In this document: piece by piece, positions 9,331-25,607 of the stretch | Position numbering within the stretch: position 1 is the first letter of the stretch | How the letters are laid out: each line of letters begins with the position of its first letter | Source of the DNA: a virus | Taxonomy: Duplodnaviria > Caudoviricetes | Direction: 5' to 3' (one strand) | DNA length: 64,000 nucleotides | IMG/VR virus record: IMGVR_UViG_2791355118_000001 | Location: 1-64,000 of that record | Program-made: the position numbers and the translations under genes | The notes under the pieces: generated by a model | Databases searched by the model: none | What the model was told of the DNA's origin: nothing | What the model saw: the letters and a program-made list of their open reading frames with translations, nothing else

Positions 9331-9936
9331 TCAGAGTGTGGAAATCCTGAGCCGAGCGCGGCCAATGACCTTCAAGTCCGCCGGCTGCACGGTTTCGTTG
9401 GTCGCCGCGGGGTTGTCGCTGTGCACCTGAACGGCGCCTGTCGTCGTGGGCGAAAGGTAGCGCCATTGCACCGCGCCGGCGATCTCCAAGGCGAAGAGGC
9501 CCGGTCGATTGGGGATGTTGTCGTCCAAATCGATCACAAGCGCATCCCCTTTGGCAACAATGCCATTGGCCTGGTAGGCGTCGACCATCATGAACCGAAG
9601 GTTGTGGCCCTCCGAGTTCGGCAGCATCCGCGTCAAAAACTCTGGATCGATCACCAGTCCTGGCGCTGCCGGGCGGCTCTTCCCGGCGGAGATCTCGAAT
9701 ACGTGGCTGAATTTGCTTACGTCCACCTCCGCAAGCTCTGGAAACATAAGTTCTTCCGGCCTCACGTTCAGGTGCGGCGCGATTCGCTCTGCCCACTTCA
9801 AGGTGAGCTTCCGTCCGTTGGGGCCGTCCTCTTCTTCCAAACGGCCCATCTGCGGCCTTGTGGTGCCAACGCGACGCGCCAGCTCGGCCTTGCTGATCCC
9901 AGCCTTTTCCCGGAAGTGCTTAATTCCATTCGCCAT
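9331..9936 (-). CDS. cI: CI-like repressor (XRE HTH + S24-like C-terminal domain)
   Basis: IKHFREKAGISKAELARRVGTTRPQMGRLE HTH; KGDALVID...VHSDNP...VIGR; divergent from the cro-like gene. Confidence 0.85.
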   Translation of the reverse strand: MANGIKHFREKAGISKAELARRVGTTRPQMGRLEEEDGPNGRKLTLKWAERIAPHLNVRPEELMFPELAEVDVSKFSHVFEISAGKSRPAAPGLVIDPEFLTRMLPNSEGHNLRFMMVDAYQANGIVAKGDALVIDLDDNIPNRPGLFALEIAGAVQWRYLSPTTTGAVQVHSDNPAATNETVQPADLKVIGRARLRISTL

Positions 9937-9972
9937 ATCAATGCGGTAGCTCAAAACGAATTCGTGCGAAAC

Positions 9973-10018
9973 TGTGCCAGTTTGGTTACAAACCTTGACG
10001 TGTAACCAAATTGGTGAC
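9973..10018. promoter_or_regulatory. cI/cro divergent switch: two operators flanking a TTGACG -35 box
   Basis: TGTGCCAGTTTGGTTAC 9973-9989, TTGACG 9995-10000, GTAACCAAATTGGTGAC 10002-10018. Confidence 0.75.
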
Positions 10019-10029
10019 AAAACCCGGCC

Positions 10030-10266
10030 ATGGAAAACCTGCATCAACTGACGAAATGGCGTTTGGACCGCAATCTGAGCGCTGCCGACGTGGGCCGGAT
10101 GATCGATTGTACGCGGCTGACAGTCGATCGGTACGAGGCCGGCCGGATGCCCAGGCAACCATATCTCGACCGCACCGTCGTTATGTCCGACGGTGAGGTG
10201 AACGCAAACCACTGGTTGGGCAAGGAGGCGGCAGATGTCGTTGCACGGCGCCGGGCTCCGGCTTGA
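10030..10266 (+). CDS. cro: Cro-like HTH regulator
   Basis: LTKWRLDRNLSAADVGRMIDCTRLTVDRYEAG.RMP...SDGEV.ANHW. Confidence 0.8.
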   Translation: MENLHQLTKWRLDRNLSAADVGRMIDCTRLTVDRYEAGRMPRQPYLDRTVVMSDGEVNANHWLGKEAADVVARRRAPA

Positions 10267-11168: not shown

Positions 11169-11471
11169 ATGACGATAATTCGTAAGCATGGCCCGAGACC
11201 GGTCTGCGAGGATCCGGGCTTCGTGTATGTGATGACGGCTGAGCTCGGCGGGGTCAAGATCGGGATGTCGACCGATCCCACCCGCCGCTGCAAGGCCGTC
11301 AATCGCAACAAGGCCATCAAAGCGGTGGTGGTGTTCCAGCGGCACTTCGCAGACCATCAGGACGCTGAGCGGCTCACCCACATTGCCCTGGCCAAATGGC
11401 GCCTGTCTGGCGAGTGGTATAGTTGCCCGGTCGAAACCGCGGTCGCGGCAGTTGAGGCACTGCCAGCATGA
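11169..11471 (+). CDS. GIY-YIG-like (T5orf172/MUG113) domain protein
   Basis: GFVYVM...VKIGMS.DP.RR...AE...H..L...RL.GEWY. Confidence 0.8.
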   Translation: MTIIRKHGPRPVCEDPGFVYVMTAELGGVKIGMSTDPTRRCKAVNRNKAIKAVVVFQRHFADHQDAERLTHIALAKWRLSGEWYSCPVETAVAAVEALPA

Positions 11472-12370
11472 GCCATGCCGCCACAAATTGGGCCATAACC
11501 CAGCGCGGGCTCAAACCTGCCACGCGCATCGTCCTCTGGCATCTCTGCGACCGCCACAACCCCGACCTTGGCTGCTTCCCGTCCCAAGACAAGCTCGCCT
11601 ATGACTGCGAGATGTCGCGCTCTGCGCTCAATGAGCATCTCAAGATCCTGGAGCTGACCGGCCTAATTCGCCGGGAGCAGCATATCAACCCCCGCACCAA
11701 ACAGCAGGAGAACACGCGCTATCGGTTCGCATTCGAGGCCGATTTCGTCACGGCACAAGATGTGGTGGAGCCGAGTCCGGAATCTGGACACGGCGCCGAG
11801 TCCGGAAAAGAGGGCGAGCCGTGTCCGGAAAATGTCTATAGCCGTGTCCGGAATCCGGACACTAACCCTGTAAGGGAACCAGTAAGAGAACCTCCAGGGC
11901 GCGCTGACGCGCCGGGCGGAGGGGATTTCGATATGCTGTGGTCCTCATGGCCAGAGAAGATGCGACCGGACAGCCGGGAAGCGGCTGCGAAGACGTTCGC
12001 AAGCCTTGAAGCTGACGGCAAGGCGCTGGCGATTGCGACGGCGGAGACCTATCGAACGACCATGATCCTTCGGAAGGAAAAGCCCCTAATGATCCCCTTC
12101 CTGAAAAAGCAGCTCTTCCTCGAGTTCCATGGCGCGCCACCCATCGACAAGGACGGGGATTTCGTGATCACGCCCGAGCGGCCCGAGTGGGGCGCATGGC
12201 TGGGCTCGATCCGCCGCCACTATGGTGAGCCGGGCGTGCAAAGCACGATTAAGTGTCGTCGCATCCTACGCAAAACACGGTGGCCGAGCGATCTTTCGCT
12301 TGCCCAAAGTGTAACCAAAATGGCAACATCTGGAACCGTAACGGATACTGCTTCGGCGGGTCGTGCATGA
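11468..12370 (+). CDS. Phage replication initiator (N-terminal winged HTH)
   Basis: RIVLWHLCDRHN...CFPSQDKLAYDCEMSRSALNEHLKILE..GLI; internal iterons. Confidence 0.85.
   Translation: MSHAATNWAITQRGLKPATRIVLWHLCDRHNPDLGCFPSQDKLAYDCEMSRSALNEHLKILELTGLIRREQHINPRTKQQENTRYRFAFEADFVTAQDVVEPSPESGHGAESGKEGEPCPENVYSRVRNPDTNPVREPVREPPGRADAPGGGDFDMLWSSWPEKMRPDSREAAAKTFASLEADGKALAIATAETYRTTMILRKEKPLMIPFLKKQLFLEFHGAPPIDKDGDFVITPERPEWGAWLGSIRRHYGEPGVQSTIKCRRILRKTRWPSDLSLAQSVTKMATSGTVTDTASAGRA
11770..11853 (+). repeat. Four 13-bp iterons (GCCGWGTCCGGAA), putative replication origin
   Basis: Copies start at 11770, 11795, 11818 and 11841 inside the initiator gene. Confidence 0.8.
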
Positions 12371-15947: not shown

Positions 15948-17255
15948 TTATTTGAGCAATCTTTGCAGGTTTTCTTTAGCTTTTGCGACGCCAAGTGCGG
16001 CCGACCTTCTGTACAGTTCGAGTGCTTTCGAACGGTCCGCTTCTACCCCCAAACCTTTCTCGTAGAGATTACCCAAGTCGTTAAGCGCGACTGCATTGCC
16101 CAAGTCGGCGCTTTTCTTCAGCCAGGCAAAGGCCTCCGGGAAATTGACAGCAGTGCCACGACCCGTCGCATACATGAGTCCCAAATTGTGCTGGGCTCCA
16201 GCATGATTTTGCTCGGCCGCCTTTCTAAACCAAAAAAAGGCCTCGGTGTCGCTCTGTGGGACGCCCTTTCCGTTCAGGTAGCTGACCCCGAGATTCTGTT
16301 GCCCTTGGGCCTCTCCCTTTTCCGCCGCGACTTCAAACAACCTAACGGCACGCTGATAATCCTGGACGACGCCGCGACCGGAGGCGTAGAGGGCGCCAAG
16401 ATTGGTATTGGCCGCAGGTAGTCCTTGCGCTGCCGCCTTTGCGAACCAAATGGCGGCCTGTGCGGCATCGGGTGCGACGCCTTTACCGCTGTCATAAAGT
16501 CCGCCTAGATTGTTTTCCCCGATGGGGTTGCCTACCGCGGCGGCAGCCCGATACCAGCGCATGGCAGCGACGAAGTCCTGTGGGACACCCCGGGCATACT
16601 CATACAAATAGCCAATTGCCGCCAGCGCCGTGGGATCGTTCTGGGCTGCCGCTTTCTGATACAACATCATCGCTTGCGCATAATCTCTCTCAATGCCTTC
16701 GCCGCTCTCATAGACTGCGCCGAGCTGAAATTGGGCAGGGGCAAACCCTTGGCCCGCCGCCTGGCGGAGGAGTTCGACGGCCCGGACCGGATCCTTTGGT
16801 CCTACTTGGCCATTCCGATACATTGTGGCCAGGCTCAATTCCGATTGAGCAAATCCCTTGGCCGCCGACTTGGTATACCATGCAAAGGCGAGAGCGCTGT
16901 TTTGAGCCACGCCGATGCCGCCCTTATCATAGAGGTAGCCCAGATTGTGTTCCGCTTGCGCGTCGCCCTTGTCGGCGGCCTGCTCAAGGTATTCCCTTCC
17001 GCGCTCCGCGTCCTGCTTCACGCCGCACCCCATCAGGTACAAAAACCCGAGATTGTTGAGCGCCGACGGCTTGCCTAAGGTAGCGTCATTTTCCCATTCC
17101 TGTCGCTTCGCGGCGAGATCACCGACTGCTGCACACGTCTCTTGCTCTGTTATAATGAAATCGCCTGCAAGCGCGTGGGAAAAGGAAGTTGCAATTGATA
17201 TTCCGGCGCAGGTTGCAGCCAGTATTATTACTTTGTGCCTTTCCGGATTAGTCAT
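15948..17255 (-). CDS. Sel1-like repeat protein with signal peptide (moron)
   Basis: About ten A..NLG.LY..G.GV..D...A..W...AA..G repeats; lower GC. Confidence 0.92.
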   Translation of the reverse strand: MTNPERHKVIILAATCAGISIATSFSHALAGDFIITEQETCAAVGDLAAKRQEWENDATLGKPSALNNLGFLYLMGCGVKQDAERGREYLEQAADKGDAQAEHNLGYLYDKGGIGVAQNSALAFAWYTKSAAKGFAQSELSLATMYRNGQVGPKDPVRAVELLRQAAGQGFAPAQFQLGAVYESGEGIERDYAQAMMLYQKAAAQNDPTALAAIGYLYEYARGVPQDFVAAMRWYRAAAAVGNPIGENNLGGLYDSGKGVAPDAAQAAIWFAKAAAQGLPAANTNLGALYASGRGVVQDYQRAVRLFEVAAEKGEAQGQQNLGVSYLNGKGVPQSDTEAFFWFRKAAEQNHAGAQHNLGLMYATGRGTAVNFPEAFAWLKKSADLGNAVALNDLGNLYEKGLGVEADRSKALELYRRSAALGVAKAKENLQRLLK

Positions 17256-17608
17256 TTCAGGCCGTCCATATTGGCTGATCGCCTCTCTGCGGAATGTCAA
17301 GGCCAGTTCAAAAACGATGCTCGGTGAATGAGCGCAAGACACAAGTATTTGACCGGTCGCCATCGCTCAGCGCGCAGGTCGGTTCCCGCCGTTACGGATG
17401 CAACGAGCGCTGCACTCGGTGCGCAAATCAGGGATGCCAAGATCGCGAATAAGGCGCCAGCGGCCACAGGGCTAGCCAGGACGCGCGCGGCGGGGTTGGG
17501 GAGTAGGGTCGCTTCCACGGGCCGCTACGCAAAAAACGGCCGCCGCGAGGACCAGTCGCGACGGCCTCCCTACCAAGTCGGCCGAGGGGGAAGCGGCCGA
17601 CCCGGATT

Positions 17609-19000
17609 CTACATCAGCATGGTGCGGGCATGTGCCTGGCGCAGCTGCGACTCCATCGAACGGATGGAGCGCGACGCCGCCGCCAGCGTGTCCGCCCATT
17701 TGTCGGCCTTGGTGGGATCGACCGACTTCAAGACGATGCACTCGCCGTCCTTGAAGCCGCCGGCGATCGCGGCGATGATCCGCTCGACCGTCTTCTCCAT
17801 CCTGCTCATGGCGGCGATATCGTCCTTCGACGGCTCCGGCCTGTCGTCGTCGAACATGCAGCCCTGCTCGATCCTGTCGCGGACGGCTTGCGCCGCCGCC
17901 TTGATGCTCGACCAGTCTTTCAGCTTGCCGCTGGAGAACAGCTTCACGATGTTGACCTGATCGGCCGTGGGGAGGTCGACGAGGTCGTTTGCATGGCCGA
18001 GCGGGAAGGCACCGCTATCGACCAGCTTCTGGATCGTCTCGTCCAGATTAAGCAGCGCCGTGCGGGCCTTGATGCGCGTCGGCTGGACGCCGATGTCCTT
18101 CGCCAGCTGCTCGACCGTCCAGCCGCGGTCGATCATCGCGTGAAACGCCCGCGCTTCCTCCAGCGGCTTGATGTCGGCGCGGGCGAGGTTTTCCACGATC
18201 GCCTGCAGCGCCATCTCGTTGTCGTCGATCTTGACGACCTCGCACAGAATGTCGGCCGCCTCGATCAGCTGGTGAGCGCGCCAGCGGCGCTCCCCACCGA
18301 CGATCTCATAGACCGCCCGGCGGCTTGGCGAGGCCGAGGGCTCGACGTTGTCGGACGCTTGTAGCGCTTCGTCTGAGCTGTTCGCCGATCCAGTCGTCGT
18401 GCCGCCACCATTGATCTCCGAGAAATTTGATTTCCTCCGGCGACCACCGGCACCGATGCCCGTTGTTGAGGAAGTCGTTGACTCTAACTCCGACTTGCTC
18501 TGCCGCGCTTCGTTTGACGTGGAAGTAGGGAAGGCAACAATCGATGACGTGCTTGACCTCTCTCGCCGCCGCGACGGTCCAGAACTATTGCTCCCAGGTT
18601 TTCCCGTGAAAGACTCGGTGTGATGGAGCGACGGTGCCGACGCACCATGCGTCTCGCAACCATCGGCAGATCGTTGCGCCGTCGTTTGTGACTGACTGGC
18701 TGACGACGACGCGGAACCGGTTGCCTTTGACGCTGATCGTTCCCTCTCCGTCGATGAAGCCGACCGTGTAGGCGACGACTTCGATTGGAGGTCGAGCAAA
18801 GTGTTCCATTCTGCGATGTTCTCCGATGTGATTTCTTCGATTCGACCGTCGGTCAGGAAAACCGGGCGAACCGTGATGGCCTGGATAAGGCCGCGCTCGC
18901 GGATCGATTCAGCCAGCTCGCGAAGCTTCACCGGGTCGAAATGCTTGCGCGGCTGGTCGAGGTTCGGGATAACAAGGTTGAGGGGGATGCGCTTCTTCAT
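17609..19000 (-). CDS. parB: ParB/Spo0J family protein with an in-frame Ser/Thr/Arg-rich insertion of about 180 aa
   Basis: PNLDQPRKHFD...LAESIRERGLIQAITVRP [insert] YEIVGGERRWRA...ENLARADIKPLEEARAF + HTH. Confidence 0.9.
   Translation of the reverse strand: MKKRIPLNLVIPNLDQPRKHFDPVKLRELAESIRERGLIQAITVRPVFLTDGRIEEITSENIAEWNTLLDLQSKSSPTRSASSTERERSASKATGSASSSASQSQTTAQRSADGCETHGASAPSLHHTESFTGKPGSNSSGPSRRRERSSTSSIVAFPTSTSNEARQSKSELESTTSSTTGIGAGGRRRKSNFSEINGGGTTTGSANSSDEALQASDNVEPSASPSRRAVYEIVGGERRWRAHQLIEAADILCEVVKIDDNEMALQAIVENLARADIKPLEEARAFHAMIDRGWTVEQLAKDIGVQPTRIKARTALLNLDETIQKLVDSGAFPLGHANDLVDLPTADQVNIVKLFSSGKLKDWSSIKAAAQAVRDRIEQGCMFDDDRPEPSKDDIAAMSRMEKTVERIIAAIAGGFKDGECIVLKSVDPTKADKWADTLAAASRSIRSMESQLRQAHARTMLM
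18306..18809 (-). pseudogene. LAGLIDADG homing endonuclease overprinted inside parB; one premature TAG (18585-18587)
   Basis: AYTVGFIDGEGTISV...VVVSQS; read through TAG by hand: FWTVAAAREVKHVIDCCLPYFHVKR...RWSPEEIKFL...IGEQLRRSATSVRQRR to TGA at 18306; GGAG upstream of ATG. Confidence 0.85.
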
Positions 19001-19220
19001 GGTCGGGCTCCGTGGTAGGGAATTTCCTAGCAACATCAATAACTTAGTATGTAACCGATATGGATACAAGTGGTTACTAAGAAAAGTTCCGATCAGCGGG
19101 CCCCCCGCTTGCGCGCGCGACCGCCAGCAACGAAGCCGTGCAAAATGGTAATCCTGCCTCGGCGTCTGATGATCAGGGAAGCGGAAGCATGGCTGGTATC
19201 AAAGTTTCCAACAACAGCGG

Positions 19221-20114
19221 TCAAGGGAGCGGCAGCGGTGCATCACTCAAGGTCCGCAGGTAGGCAATGAGGTCCGCCCGCTTGTTTCCCTCCTTCAAAC
19301 CCGGGAAAGACATGTCCGTACCGGGCAACGTGAGCGAGGGATTCGAGATGAAGAGATTGAGCTCCTCAAAGGTCCATTTGCCGCCAGCGTCTTTCAGAGC
19401 CGCCGAATACTGGACATCGCTTTGGGATCCTTTCTCGCGCCCGACGATGCCCCACAGATTGACCTTTTTGGGCACCTTGACGCCCGGCGAAAGATGACAG
19501 GCGACGCAGGTGCTGTCGTATATCTCTTTGCCCGATTGAGCGTTTGCTGATGCAAGGAGTGCGGAAATCGGCGCGATGGCCGGTCTTGCGGCGCCATGAT
19601 CGCGCAAGTACGCCGCGACGTCCTCGTGGCCTCCGACCTTGGCCAGATGTATCGGCGGACTTCCATTCGACGTCAGGGCGTTGACGTCTGCTCCGGCGCC
19701 GACAAGGTGGATAACGCACTCAAGGCAGCCATTTTCGGCAGCAACATGCAGCGGCGTCTGCGCTTTCGCCACCCGATTTGGATCGGCCCCGTTGTCTAGC
19801 AGCAGCTTGACGATGGCAGCATGCCCACCCTTATTGGCGGCGTAGAGTGGCGTTCTTTGCCAACTGACAGGCAGGTTGACGTCTGCCCCACGCTTGATCA
19901 GCAGCGCTGCCAACTCGACATTTCCACGTTCGGAGGCGATGTAGAGCGCCGTAACACCGTCGATTTCGTTGACATCTGCGCCTTTGTCCAAGGCGGAGGT
20001 CACGGCCGCGACGTCGCCATCCTTGACCAAATCCCCCAAGCTGCTCGCTTGCGCGGGCAGGGCCAGGAGGGCGCACGAAACCCACAGCGTCCACATGCGT
20101 CCCGGCTTGATCAT
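19221..20114 (-). CDS. Secreted ankyrin-repeat / cytochrome c fusion protein (moron)
   Basis: Signal peptide; TALYIA/TPLYAA/TPLHVAA repeats; CVACH haem motif; class I cytochrome c tail (PGTDMSF.GLK...RADLIAYL). Confidence 0.9.
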   Translation of the reverse strand: MIKPGRMWTLWVSCALLALPAQASSLGDLVKDGDVAAVTSALDKGADVNEIDGVTALYIASERGNVELAALLIKRGADVNLPVSWQRTPLYAANKGGHAAIVKLLLDNGADPNRVAKAQTPLHVAAENGCLECVIHLVGAGADVNALTSNGSPPIHLAKVGGHEDVAAYLRDHGAARPAIAPISALLASANAQSGKEIYDSTCVACHLSPGVKVPKKVNLWGIVGREKGSQSDVQYSAALKDAGGKWTFEELNLFISNPSLTLPGTDMSFPGLKEGNKRADLIAYLRTLSDAPLPLP

Positions 20115-20248
20115 TGCACCCCTCTAGGCTGCTCGTATCTCACCCTGCAATTTAACCGAACGCAGAGAGTTAGTACACGCTAATATATGAAGAGGGGACG
20201 ACGATCGGCTGGACGGTGGTGGTGTGTCGATGTTCATGCCGGCCACCC

Positions 20249-23772: not shown

Positions 23773-25344
23773 CTAAAAGTAATTTCTGCGGCCGTCCTTC
23801 CATAGCTTGACCGTGACGGTGTTCACGTAGGTCCCGACCTCGGCGAAGGATCCGTGCGGCAGATCGCGGAACTGGCCGTTCAGCTTCTCGATCAAGGCCC
23901 GGAAAGCGATGGCCTTGCGAGTTTCGCGAAACTCGGTGCCGGCCGACATGATGGCCGCGAGGCACCCGCCGTCTTCCAGGAAGTCGAGGGCGTGCACGAC
24001 ATGGTCGATATCGCGCTCCATGTCGAACGGCGGGTTCATGATGATGCGATCGTATTTTCCCGTCACGGAGGGGCGCAGCGCCAGGAAGTCGGCGGCGTAC
24101 ACCTTGCGGTATTTGCCCTGCGCCTCGAGCGCGGCGGCAAGCGCTGGCTGTAGCTCCACGCAATCGACCTGGTTGTCGAAGCGGTATTCCTTGCGCCAGC
24201 GGTCCATCCGGGCCTCGTCCCCATATCCGTAATGATCGGCGAAATCTTCGATGCCGGTCAGGCAGCGGCGCGCCAGATTGCCGGTGCCGGCGCTGGGCTC
24301 CAGGATCCGAAGGCGCGGCTTCTCGATAGGCTGGAGAAGGGGAATGCTCTTAAGCAACTCCTCGGCCGCGGCGTCGGGCGTCGGGAAGAAACCGAAGTTC
24401 TTAGCCGGCGTGGTCTTCCGGTTGCGGAAAAGGTCGTCGGGTTCCTGGGTCTGCCCGTCGCCGATCACCTCGCCGTAGTATTCGGCGAGCATCTTGTTGA
24501 CCCTTTCCACCAGGTCGTCACGCGTGAACCAGAGATGGGCATTGCCGTTCTTGTAGGCGACGATCCTGAAATACTCGCCGTGATGTTCGGACTGCTGAGG
24601 CTGAAAGCCCCTGCGCTCGGCTCGCACCTGGTTCTCGATGCTGTTGTAGGTCGGCTTCTTGCCGTCGAGGATTGAGAACGTCCGCTCGATATCGCGCACC
24701 GTCTCCCATGTTCCGCCCCACGTTACGTTGCCGTGGTCGCGGTCAAAGGCGTAGGGCAGGATCATGCGGCTGCCGACCTTGAAGCCGTCGTGCGAACGGA
24801 AACGGCGATCGAGCTTGGAAAACGCCGTGGCGATGCCCCGGCGGAAGATCATTTCGGATTCGCCGGCCCACTTGTCGATCGTGGCGTACACGTTGTCGAC
24901 GGTCACCGGCGGGATCCCCATGATCTCGTCGAGATTGACCAGTTCCTTTCCGTTGCCGTGCCGGTGGTCGTAGCGCTCCGGCACCCACCTGAGAGTGTCG
25001 CGCAGCTCGTCCTTGGCCTGCTTGTCCATCAGGATCTCGAGGTCGGTCATCTGGACCAGGTAATGCCAGCACGAGATATCGATCAGGCGGATTGCTGTGC
25101 GCTTCCACTGCTCGGCGTCTGGCAAATCGACGGCTTCGAAAAATGCCCTGACCTCGTGGTTGTCGCGGTCTCCGTATCGAGAGCAGGCATGATCTCCGGC
25201 GGCCGCTTTCCAGAGCGCCGCCGCCTTCTTCAATTCCCGGTCGGCTTGCTCCATTGAGGCGAACGCCCCGTGATAGGCCGCGACCGCGGCGTCCCGATAG
25301 GCGACGATCTGCTCGATCGTGTTGCGCGGGATGAGCGCGTTCAT
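23773..25344 (-). CDS. DUF4942-type domain fused to DNA adenine methyltransferase
   Basis: YKNGNAHLWF; FFPTP, ILEPSAGTG, YDRIIMNPPF, F.EVGT.VNT. Confidence 0.88.
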   Translation of the reverse strand: MNALIPRNTIEQIVAYRDAAVAAYHGAFASMEQADRELKKAAALWKAAAGDHACSRYGDRDNHEVRAFFEAVDLPDAEQWKRTAIRLIDISCWHYLVQMTDLEILMDKQAKDELRDTLRWVPERYDHRHGNGKELVNLDEIMGIPPVTVDNVYATIDKWAGESEMIFRRGIATAFSKLDRRFRSHDGFKVGSRMILPYAFDRDHGNVTWGGTWETVRDIERTFSILDGKKPTYNSIENQVRAERRGFQPQQSEHHGEYFRIVAYKNGNAHLWFTRDDLVERVNKMLAEYYGEVIGDGQTQEPDDLFRNRKTTPAKNFGFFPTPDAAAEELLKSIPLLQPIEKPRLRILEPSAGTGNLARRCLTGIEDFADHYGYGDEARMDRWRKEYRFDNQVDCVELQPALAAALEAQGKYRKVYAADFLALRPSVTGKYDRIIMNPPFDMERDIDHVVHALDFLEDGGCLAAIMSAGTEFRETRKAIAFRALIEKLNGQFRDLPHGSFAEVGTYVNTVTVKLWKDGRRNYF

Positions 25345-25607
25345 GGGCTGATCCCTTCTGCGATGCAAAGAGTCTTCCAATCGACGTATGCAATCGACAC
25401 ACCGCAGCGCGTGAAATGGCTGTCTCTCTGTTCCCAACCTGCGGCTCGGGCGGCGGTCTCCCATAGGTCGGGCGCGTCCACCGGCTTGAAGGATCGCGCC
25501 TTGTGCATGCGCTGGAAGGCGAACGCGTCGCCAAGCTCGCTCACGAACTCGTAGCGCTTGCTGCCGTCGAGCAGGGTGAACTCGTATTCAGTCATCTTGT
25601 CGGTCAT
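25341..25607 (-). CDS. Hypothetical phage protein
   Basis: 88-aa ORF following the leader repeat; ATGA overlap. Confidence 0.6.
   Translation of the reverse strand: MTDKMTEYEFTLLDGSKRYEFVSELGDAFAFQRMHKARSFKPVDAPDLWETAARAAGWEQRDSHFTRCGVSIAYVDWKTLCIAEGISP

Follow-up and report, generated by a model that had tools for sequence, protein, structure and literature searches.

How might a homing endonuclease gene persist in a conserved part of a host gene if neither an intron nor an intein takes it out again? The common view is that only such removal lets homing endonucleases last at conserved coding sites. The question is raised by a parB gene on the minus strand of IMG/VR virus record IMGVR_UViG_2791355118_000001, of which we analysed positions 1 to 64,000 (the window, 64,000 nucleotides (nt)). 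This gene carries extra DNA beside the codons for the conserved GERR motif, and another frame of the same strand encodes a LAGLIDADG-type nuclease there. We put at roughly 80% the probability that the insert is a mobile LAGLIDADG gene without intron or intein that lies out of frame in parB, the host frame being read through as a loop.

The parB gene and its insert

We identified the host protein by its domains, conserved residues and predicted fold. The parB-frame open reading frame (ORF) spans 17609..19069 and, from the ATG at 19000 (MKKRIPL...), comprises 463 codons, with the stop at 17609–17611. Searches of the 463-amino-acid (aa) protein returned ParB_N (Pfam, E 2.6e-20) and parB_part (NCBIfam TIGR00180, E 4.7e-29), each in two stretches, and HTH_ParB (Pfam, E 8.7e-15); residues 3–48 of the segment before the insert (the N-extein) correspond to ParB_N profile positions 4–49. 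Residues G236, E237, R238 (≥90% of rows), R239, R241 and A242 are conserved across 47 sequences. A Foldseek search with an AlphaFold2 (AF2) model of the window protein, also based on 47 sequences, retrieved ParB with CTPgammaS or CDP, and Noc, at E ~1e-9 (7bnr, E 1.9e-9), and the model aligned to Caulobacter ParB 6t1f with a template-modelling score (TM-score) of 0.74, normalised to the target, the alignments spanning the insert. The ParB_N and HTH_ParB domains, the GERRxRA motif and the modelled ParB fold together point to a protein of the ParB/Spo0J type, for which CTP binding is predicted.

In the ParB frame, translation passes from ITVRPV into FLTDGRIEE, continues through Ser/Thr/Arg-rich sequence to SPSRRAV and resumes at YEIVGGERRWRA, without a stop throughout. 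About 184 extra residues lie between the two flanks; the first segment is FLTDGRIEEITSENIAEWNTLLDL, and the Ser/Thr/Arg-rich part follows. An allele that lacks the insert, from Mesorhizobium sp. WSM3862 (L004), aligns to window positions 19021–18861 (93.9%) and 18305–17603 (97.9%) and also matches the flanking island farther out. The distance between the anchors common to both alleles is 556 nt in the window and 16 nt in L004, so that the insertion adds 540 nt net and, at 180 codons, keeps the frame. The limits of the insert obtained from L004, 18306–18860, fall within one base of those given in the original prediction, which had described about 550 nt of extra DNA in parB with a stop-free, Ser/Thr/Arg-rich reading in the ParB frame; translation confirmed that description as well.

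Alleles of parB with 92–97% identity differ in whether they carry the insert. Besides the window, it occurs in a second IMG/VR record (L002) and in Mesorhizobium sp. WSM3860 (L003). An insert-bearing protein of 476 aa (P0003, named a Mesorhizobium ParB-family protein by NCBI) is 97% identical to the 463-aa ParB, and there are many insert-less forms of 283–293 aa, including P0005 (285 aa, 92% identical), P0006 and P0007; the protein alignment used these three together with P0015 and P0021 as insert-less partners. Among 202 genomes of the genus, the nuclease was present (E ≤ 1e-5) in one, that of WSM3860. Because the insert is present or absent at one site among near-identical host alleles, we conclude that it is a mobile element. 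Insert-less alleles (L004 and P0005) and alleles with an intact nuclease (P0002, L002 and L003), for which the original prediction had recommended searching, thus both exist.

Several smaller observations concern the insert and its target. Both indels within the Mesorhizobium clade are in frame and preserve both reading frames. No insert-less joint was seen in contigs of the DNA runs X1, X5, X7 and X9, a result that counts neither for nor against mobility. Only about 5 of 10 symmetric positions match in the insert-less target when it is inspected by eye for a pseudo-palindrome. The element also explains oddities of annotation, the ParB being called either as 476 aa or as a 286-aa piece that starts within the insert. 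In this shorter call (P0004), the C-terminal part of ParB begins at an ATG inside the insert (MGIGAGGRR...) and the N-extein is dropped; the ATG is present in L003, and the window has ACG at that point.

The AF2 model predicts that ParB folds around a disordered loop. Its mean predicted local distance difference test score (pLDDT) was 74.6, with most of the ParB domains above 90 and residues 83–216 below 50. The first ~30 residues of the insert were modelled with confidence (pLDDT 72–95) as a hairpin that extends strand 2, followed by a helix (residues 62–75), and the leader region (residues 44–70), which covers the hairpin and the start of the helix, reached 89–95. A model of the host protein of a metagenomic relative (L048, 10 sequences) gave the same picture and, in addition, an island of confidence (pLDDT ≥50) at residues 176–186, in which CPIC occupies residues 179–182.

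The nuclease in the second frame

The nuclease frame begins with an ATG at 18809 and ends with a TGA that overlaps the ParB codons TAT GAG (Tyr-Glu). ParB codons start at the second base of nuclease codons, that is, the nuclease occupies the host +2 frame. A GGAG that may serve as its Shine-Dalgarno sequence precedes the ATG at a distance of 11 nt, which is at the long end of the usual range. Both the GGAG and the overlapping TGA had been pointed out in the original prediction, and both are read in the sequence.

We next consider what kind of nuclease this frame encodes. An intact allele, P0002 (168 aa, 97% identical to the window nuclease), occurs on 24 contigs. A full HMMER scan for its relatives returned 404 at E ≤ 1e-3, of which 33 reached 1e-10 and 9 reached 1e-30; most are 160–240 aa long. 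The alignment of the 33 relatives contains the motifs AYTAGxxDGEGS, ISQSxxNDGE, WxW and LPYLRVKR, followed by one to three copies of a tail repeat, W..ED..L...IA..LgRs..a.R.RR..LG. A profile of these 33 sequences matched I-CreI, I-MsoI and I-CvuI in the PDB (E 7.6e-10 to 1.8e-8, profile positions 4–118) and single-chain I-CreI dimers (E 3e-20). Direct Pfam matches were sparser: LAGLIDADG_1 matched 3 of the 33 (best E 6.5e-8), helix–turn–helix (HTH) models matched 1–3 of the 33 (Sigma70_r4_2, HTH_AsnC-type and HTH_23 2–3 of them), and P0002 itself had no Pfam match. We assign the nuclease to LAGLIDADG because the profile of its relatives matches I-CreI-type chains. By motif and core homology, it appears to be a single-motif enzyme of the I-CreI type with predicted activity, in agreement with the 167-codon single-motif LAGLIDADG gene proposed originally.

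The conserved residues fall in the expected segments. Across 21 relatives, T15, A16, G17, D20, G21, E22 and G23 of the first motif are invariant, the window having V16, as are P94, V98 and K99 of the segment that reads LPYFHVKR in the window. E22 is the acidic residue of the motif, and metal binding is the role of the acidic residue that ends a LAGLIDADG motif. Tail length varies: nucleases of the metagenomic loci L048–L056 have two tail repeats and ~217 codons, with the host-frame insert growing to ~240 residues, and some relatives (P0140, P0142 and P0148) have three repeats. The 3′ end of the window nuclease, PPGGL*, was considered as a copy of host sequence (PGGIYE in P0021) and rejected, since KPPGG(L/I/F) is a conserved ending of the first tail repeat in distant nucleases.

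In the window the nuclease is interrupted by a TAG codon. L002 and L003 read TGG at this site and encode intact 168-aa nucleases. Contigs of all four public DNA runs (X1, X5, X7 and X9) have C at 18586 on the plus strand, which corresponds to TGG, and three additional bases behind 18348. These reads indicate that the nonsense change and a 3-nt in-frame deletion are private to the window. We conclude that the window nuclease was killed by TGG>TAG and that parB stays open. The TAG and the open ParB frame noted in the original prediction are therefore both present, but the TAG is a private lesion and not a feature of the family. A dead nuclease within an open host frame fits the expected late stage of the homing cycle, and two lineages are in this state: the window, and the metagenomic locus L065 with one nuclease stop in a 501-codon open host frame. 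The nonsense codons of the window and L065 (~1313–1318) each lie a few residues before W-x-W; the alignment columns differ, and this is probably a coincidence.

Nesting and selection in the nuclease family

We scanned viral contigs with the 33-sequence alignment, which yielded 41 loci, and metagenomes with a 21-sequence alignment, from which we took the best 80 of 225 confirmed loci (405 pattern matches). Besides the known allele, one viral-contig locus, L008, is a close relative (32% identical, same architecture, GC content 0.55). Its nuclease lies wholly within a 362-codon ORF in the +1 frame (...YNPNRV...TQPIVVARE, insert, GIEYEIVDGYHRY...), and PHROGs matches this host ORF to a ParB-like partition protein (phrog_2159, 6e-54, two stretches). 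The 18 closest metagenome loci among the matches listed (L048–L065) are 30–51% identical over core and tail and comprise 12 distinct sequences. In 17 of the 18, no stop interrupts the +1 frame along the nuclease, and the frame runs on into ParB-family sequence or to the contig end on both sides. When the 12 metagenome sequences are taken together with L008 and the Mesorhizobium clade, so that the groups come from phage, metagenome and Mesorhizobium records, the nuclease is nested inside a longer stop-free ParB-family +1 frame in 13 of the 14 distinct groups. These alignments argue that nested, out-of-frame placement is the habit of this nuclease family. Frequent breakage of the ParB frame in homologous inserts, which the original prediction had named as evidence that would speak against it, was not seen.

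The hosts are of two kinds. One is canonical ParB, with (F/Y)xLVYGERRxRA and an HTH domain, in which ParB_N is split at profile positions 48/50 (L048, L050, L058 and L065); the other is a phage type with IVDG(Y/F)HR that matches phrog_2159 at 1e-39 to 1e-65 (L061, L063 and L064). The insertion point is constant: it is the loop that follows strand 2 (VRP or PIVV) and leads to the strand preceding GERR or DGxHR, so the predicted insertion beside the GERR motif extends to the same loop in 13 of 14 groups. The host frame is also open at low GC content, as in the pair L061/L062 (GC 0.41, 409 codons). Just upstream of the L008 host, which is of the phage type, a gene at 1118–2308 of that locus overlaps the host start; its sequence suggests a putative PAPS-reductase-like protein.

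We then asked how often a stop-free second frame occurs in other nucleases. Among 83 other, more distant LAGLIDADG ORFs from the same scans, none had a stop-free +1 frame. These controls contained 7.6, 5.4 and 3.3 +1 stops per 100 codons at GC contents of <0.45, 0.45–0.55 and ≥0.55, respectively, and 12 family ORFs contained none. Stops are avoided at the level of single codons. Before a codon starting with A, Leu, Val and Ile codons of the form xTG or xTA are the only such combinations that give TGA, TAA or TAG in the host frame; the 12 family ORFs used them in 0 of 90 cases, and 18 control ORFs in 52 of 69 cases for Leu and 29 of 50 for Val. Met followed by an A-starting codon occurred in 0 of 18 cases in the family ORFs versus 16 of 41 in the controls, and 15 of 15 sequences encode the Val of LPYLRVKR by GTC or GTT. 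Among family loci, synonymous sites approach saturation (proportion of synonymous differences 0.35–0.9). Together with nuclease identities of 30–45%, this indicates that the open host frame has been maintained and not merely inherited.

The two frames of the overlap differ in the selection that they record. Among the three Mesorhizobium alleles, 10 of 15 variable overlap sites are at nuclease third positions (binomial P 0.0085), and the three allele pairs have 3, 6 and 7 changes that affect the host and are silent in the nuclease, compared with 1, 2 and 1 of the reverse class. The ratio of non-synonymous to synonymous rates (omega) was estimated by the Nei-Gojobori method over 13 pairs, the frame-specific comparison that had been suggested as a check. 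Omega was 0.11–0.48 for the nuclease frame in the 11 computable pairs and 0.69–1.51 for the host frame on the same DNA, with 3.77 in the closest pair. For the ParB segment after the insert (the C-extein) it was 0.06–0.44 in the seven least saturated pairs free of a frameshift in the L054 extein, and synonymous:non-synonymous counts between insert-bearing alleles were 30:12, 22:5 and 31:6. These estimates show that the nuclease frame is under amino-acid selection, that the host frame within the insert is approximately neutral except for the avoidance of stops, and that the ParB exteins are still under purifying selection in insert-bearing lineages. The original prediction had taken the TAG in an otherwise open ParB frame as a sign of selection on the host frame; the estimates place amino-acid selection on the nuclease frame instead.

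Part of the host-frame reading is nevertheless conserved in most relatives. With the exception of the window clade and L065, relatives have (Y/L/W/M)PCG(H/V/D) in the host frame of the leader, 5–12 residues past the junction (QCGH in L060). Its codons vary synonymously (CCC/CCT/CCA, TGT/TGC, GGA/GGT/GGC/GGG and CAT/CAC), from which it follows that PCGH is conserved as protein. About 105 residues further on, a host-frame CP(I/T)C overprints the LPYL of the nuclease. The Leu codons at the two Cys positions of this motif are CTG or TTG (once Met, ATG), giving TGC in the host frame, in 19 of 19 Leu codons from 10 loci, compared with 19 of 138 elsewhere (Fisher 2.5e-14, uncorrected for kinship). 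Both motifs are jointly absent from the window clade (TDGR ... FPTS) and from L065 (PDGR ... SHSS). One possibility is that PCGH and CP(I/T)C together form a Cys3His zinc knuckle, which would hold the loop in place and render the insertion harmless. That the element is truly dual-coding, with a host-frame reading shaped by selection and not a passive spacer, is a tentative suggestion that we hold to be rather doubtful.

Table 1 Features of the parB locus in the window, with the evidence for each
Feature	Positions	Strand	Evidence
parB with insert	17609..19000	−	ORF list and translation; Pfam; TIGR00180 (4.7e-29); AF2 model against ParB/Noc structures
ParB N-extein (MKKR...ITVRPV), comprising strands 1 and 2 and helix 1 of the N-domain	18861..19000	−	L004 alignment; Pfam; pLDDT 86–96
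Mobile insert, 555 nt, no ParB-frame stop, absent from close parB alleles	18306..18860	−	L004 breakpoints; protein alignment; all-frame translation
Insert leader, coding in the ParB frame only (FLTDGRIEEITSENIAE); corresponds to the (Y/L)PCGH segment of relatives, here TDGR	18810..18860	−	Translation; relatives; AF2
GGAG, possible Shine-Dalgarno sequence of the nuclease (putative function), 11 nt before the ATG	18821..18824	−	Read from the sequence
Nuclease ORF, 167 codons and TGA (18306–18308), interrupted in the window; host frame is nuclease +1	18306..18809	−	Translation; intact alleles P0002, L002 and L003; profile
LAGLIDADG motif AYTVGFIDGEG, nuclease residues 13–23	18741..18773	−	Alignment; YLAGFVDGDGS of I-CreI aligned
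Nonsense codon TAG of the nuclease frame, where other alleles have TGG (Trp); ParB-frame codon AGT (Ser)	18585..18587	−	Allele comparison; contigs of DNA runs
Nuclease motif LPYFHVKR; FPTSTSN in the ParB frame, CP(I/T)CGS in the host frame of relatives	18510..18533	−	Alignment with PFLKLKQ of I-CreI
HTH-like C-terminal tail RWSPEEIKFL...SVRQRRALGL	18330..18449	−	Alignment; Pfam HTH models in some relatives
ParB C-extein (IVGGERRWRA... to stop): GERR motif, HTH domain and C-terminal region	17609..18305	−	L004, 97.9% identity; pLDDT mostly >90

The neighbours of parB encode Sel1-repeat, ankyrin/cytochrome c, HTH and DUF4942 proteins, and IMG/VR calls the record a provirus; with its DUF4942, Sel1 and HTH genes the region resembles an integrative island more than it does a typical phage. 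A nine-repeat Sel1 protein (7e-84; 15948–17363, minus strand) and a DUF4942 protein (5e-38; 23773–25464, minus strand) flank the region, and HTH proteins lie at 9331–10212 and 11468–12370. In the gene upstream of parB (19221–20114, minus strand), ankyrin repeats (Ank, 5e-27) are fused to a cytochrome c domain (2.8e-7); L004 has no match to window positions ~19022–20209, and this gene may vary between islands. Weak Rfam matches on the minus strand at 17531–17657, where the GC content is 0.69, cover the parB stop and the DNA just past it; they are to the alphaproteobacterial small RNAs (sRNAs) ar7 (E 0.0016; 29.6 bits, the gathering score being 60) and ar14.

Alternatives, known systems and meaning

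The explanation that we favour is a nested gene whose host is read straight through it. The element consists of a leader of ~51 nt and a gene for a single-motif, I-CreI-like nuclease that ends in an HTH-like DNA-binding tail; this nuclease would start at the ATG of its own frame. The site of invasion lies in the ParB N-domain, in the hairpin loop that joins strand 2 (VRP) to the strand leading into GERR. The host gene would be neither split nor spliced; ribosomes would traverse the element in the frame one base downstream, and this read-through would add ~180 residues, predicted to form a short hairpin and helix and then a Ser/Thr/Arg-rich disordered surface loop, with ParB folding around them. 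Persistence of the element would require a stop-free second frame, which would shape codon choice. The data show the anatomy of the insert, its family, the presence/absence pattern, the nesting across the family, the avoidance of stops and the frame under amino-acid selection; we infer that the nuclease is active and what it cuts (the L004-type allele being the candidate substrate), that both frames are translated and that mature ParB keeps the loop. The earlier proposal of a selfish element tolerated as a loop gains support from the presence/absence pattern, from nesting in 13 of 14 groups and from the stop-avoiding codons.

A number of observations weigh against this explanation. A synonymous shuffle of each gene's own codons yields a stop-free +1 frame in 3–53% of trials per gene; this null is too conservative, and we replaced it by the 83 controls and the codon-context counts because the shuffled codon set is already adapted. 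The window nuclease frame on its own matches no Pfam or NCBIfam model at E ≤ 1, and PHROGs places the nuclease in phrog_5046 (E 6e-8), labelled 'HNH endonuclease', which we treat as a name only. In L060, the exception among the groups, two 1-nt shifts put the ParB N-terminal part, the nuclease halves and the ParB C-terminal part in three frames; this locus is either a decayed copy or a poor assembly, and a ParB-N/nuclease frameshift fusion, as it could be read there, was rejected because it appears in a single broken contig. L054 has a frameshift in its C-extein (~1200), and the contig of run X1 (depth 14.8) has a 1-nt insertion at 18932 in the N-extein; both could be decay or assembly errors. 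The N-extein of L064 is short, and PHROGs matches its C side only. No parA adjoins the window parB, which is an orphan within its island. Finally, the family loci share ancestry, and counts across them are not independent events.

One alternative is that the insert is removed before ParB matures, by unrecognised RNA splicing, by a bypass like that of T4 gene 60 or by protein splicing or cleavage through unfamiliar chemistry. As a rule, homing endonuclease genes found within coding genes are carried by introns or inteins. Some inteins contain an out-of-frame LAGLIDADG gene (bioRxiv 10.64898/2026.09.14.751524), and relatives of the element keep a Cys 5–12 residues past the N-junction, in PCGH. 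Yet the nuclease ORF occupies 504 of the 555 nt, and with only ~17 codons outside it there is no space for a ribozyme core or for splicing domains of ~130 aa. Rfam, searched at E ≤ 1 over 17500–19200 with covariance models that cover recognised ribozyme families and do not reach a novel ribozyme, found no intron family, the two weak sRNA matches lying outside the insert and below gathering scores. A Pfam search of the 463-aa protein at E ≤ 1 gave neither a Hint nor an intein domain. At both junctions (VRPV|FLTDG and SRRAV|YEIV) there is no Cys or Ser at position 1 and no His-Asn followed by Cys, Ser or Thr, and the same holds in relatives. An intein with the PCGH Cys as nucleophile was rejected, as this Cys is off the junction, the window and L065 lack it and no locus has the His-Asn residues at the C-junction. 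By these features the insert does not appear to be an intein or a group I or group II intron, the junctions, Pfam and Rfam agreeing with the original prediction. Furthermore, splicing or bypass needs no stop-free host frame, and yet stops are avoided codon by codon family-wide. Bypass and unusual splicing, which had been offered as options from the start, are disfavoured because the stop-free frame and the synonymously varying host-frame motif make sense only with translation through the insert. Removal is thus an improbable account.

We regard it as equally improbable that the window copy is a relic, that is, that the insertion inactivated parB and the open frame was inherited and has not yet decayed. 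The dead nuclease with its private 3-nt deletion, the absence of the host-frame Cys motifs from the Mesorhizobium clade, the 1-nt insertion in the X1 contig and the orphan position of parB in an island called a provirus would all suit a relic. The exteins of insert-bearing alleles are, however, under strong purifying selection (omega 0.06; synonymous:non-synonymous counts of 31:6 and 12:2), both indels of the clade are in frame for both genes, and the host frame is open in relatives whose nucleases are 30–45% identical, two of them with dead nucleases. That the second frame is a chance ORF of GC-rich DNA and the nuclease not a gene is hardly credible. The region has a GC content of 58–60% with many long spurious ORFs on both strands, and there is no direct Pfam match; against this stand the 404 relatives (9 at E ≤ 1e-30), the profile match to I-CreI, the omega of 0.11–0.48 and the intact 168-aa allele on 24 contigs.

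A mobile gene read through in its host thus remains the preferred reading, and several known nucleases resemble parts of it. I-CreI, I-MsoI and I-CvuI are encoded in group I introns of ribosomal DNA. The parB family shares with them the single motif, a core of ~110 residues, the acidic motif residue and a Lys aligned with the Lys of PFLKLKQ; unlike them, it has an HTH-like tail in one to three copies and sits in a protein-coding gene without an intron. The profile matches also included the I-OnuI group (PDB titles 'Ribosomal protein 3/homing endonuclease-like protein fusion'). In rps3 of fungal mitochondria, a LAGLIDADG gene is inserted directly, with no intron of its own, in the same frame, and is made as a fusion; the parB element, by contrast, uses different frames for what would be two separate proteins. 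Free-standing homing endonuclease genes have likewise invaded conserved genes whose function survives, as with mobE in nrdA of phage Aeh1 and the mobA/gene 60 bypass cassette of T4. In those cases the host protein is made as two polypeptides or ribosomes jump the gap, whereas the parB element keeps one continuous host frame.

The closest parallel that we found is the ShiLan domain, an out-of-frame HNH gene inside actinobacteriophage methylases whose host frame is read through with no intron or intein (PMC11855218, 2025). As far as that paper's main text describes it, ShiLan shares with the parB element a stop-free host frame and a nuclease in another frame that starts a few codons in and ends at the last bases of the insert. 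It also shares the disjunct distribution among close alleles, the lack of a detectable intron or intein, a host product predicted to form a loop away from the fold, and the same relative frame, the nuclease being host +2 (the 'third frame' of PMC11855218). Unlike the parB element, the ShiLan nuclease is described as HNH with zinc fingers, its host is a methylase, it is known from Mycobacterium phages and its gene has a GTG start and no ribosome-binding site. The codon-level and dN/dS evidence for read-through and the conserved host-frame motif are given here, and none is reported in the main text of PMC11855218. The comparison suggests that the parB element works like the ShiLan element without being a relative of it.

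A second parallel is the cyanobacterial dnaX intein with an out-of-frame LAGLIDADG gene (bioRxiv 10.64898/2026.09.14.751524; Gorbalenya 1998, cited there). There too LAGLIDADG is overprinted on a host stretch predicted to be disordered, a Shine-Dalgarno-like motif precedes the nuclease, the nuclease frame is under purifying selection and the host-frame dN/dS is raised. Unlike the parB element, the dnaX nuclease is flanked by splicing domains that excise the stretch; the parB insert has none, and ParB apparently retains the loop. Nucleases that lie out of frame or antisense within phage inteins have also been surveyed (bioRxiv 10.1101/2025.01.02.630785). As far as these sources describe it, the same phase recurs for the ShiLan HNH ('third frame'), the dnaX LAGLIDADG ('+2 ORF') and an endonuclease VII-like intein gene ('frame 3'), although naming conventions may differ. 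Out-of-frame nesting of HNH genes in phage methylases is thus already published in PMC11855218. Our literature search, which lay outside supplementary case lists, found no LAGLIDADG gene nested in ParB, the nearest topics being WhiA, GmrSD and fungi; PMC7468147 and PMC7156551 proved to have no bearing on it. Nor did we find in print any LAGLIDADG family that has specialised on ParB and keeps a Cys motif in the host frame, as this one does outside the window, where the motif is lost; such a family is apparently new.

Read-through nesting now extends to a different class of nuclease, LAGLIDADG, and to a host family, ParB, that is widespread in bacteria, islands and phages. It would be a conserved lifestyle of a whole nuclease family and not a one-off event. 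The codon footprint (no xTG or xTA before A-starting codons and no Met before them) could serve genome searches for more such elements, and the family is a source of natural enzymes that are predicted to be I-CreI-like, carry additional HTH modules and have target genes of a known family. If the element is truly dual-coding, homing endonucleases would have, next to introns and inteins, a third means of occupying a site that encodes an essential motif, a route that would be used by a whole LAGLIDADG family specialised on genes of the ParB/sulfiredoxin fold.

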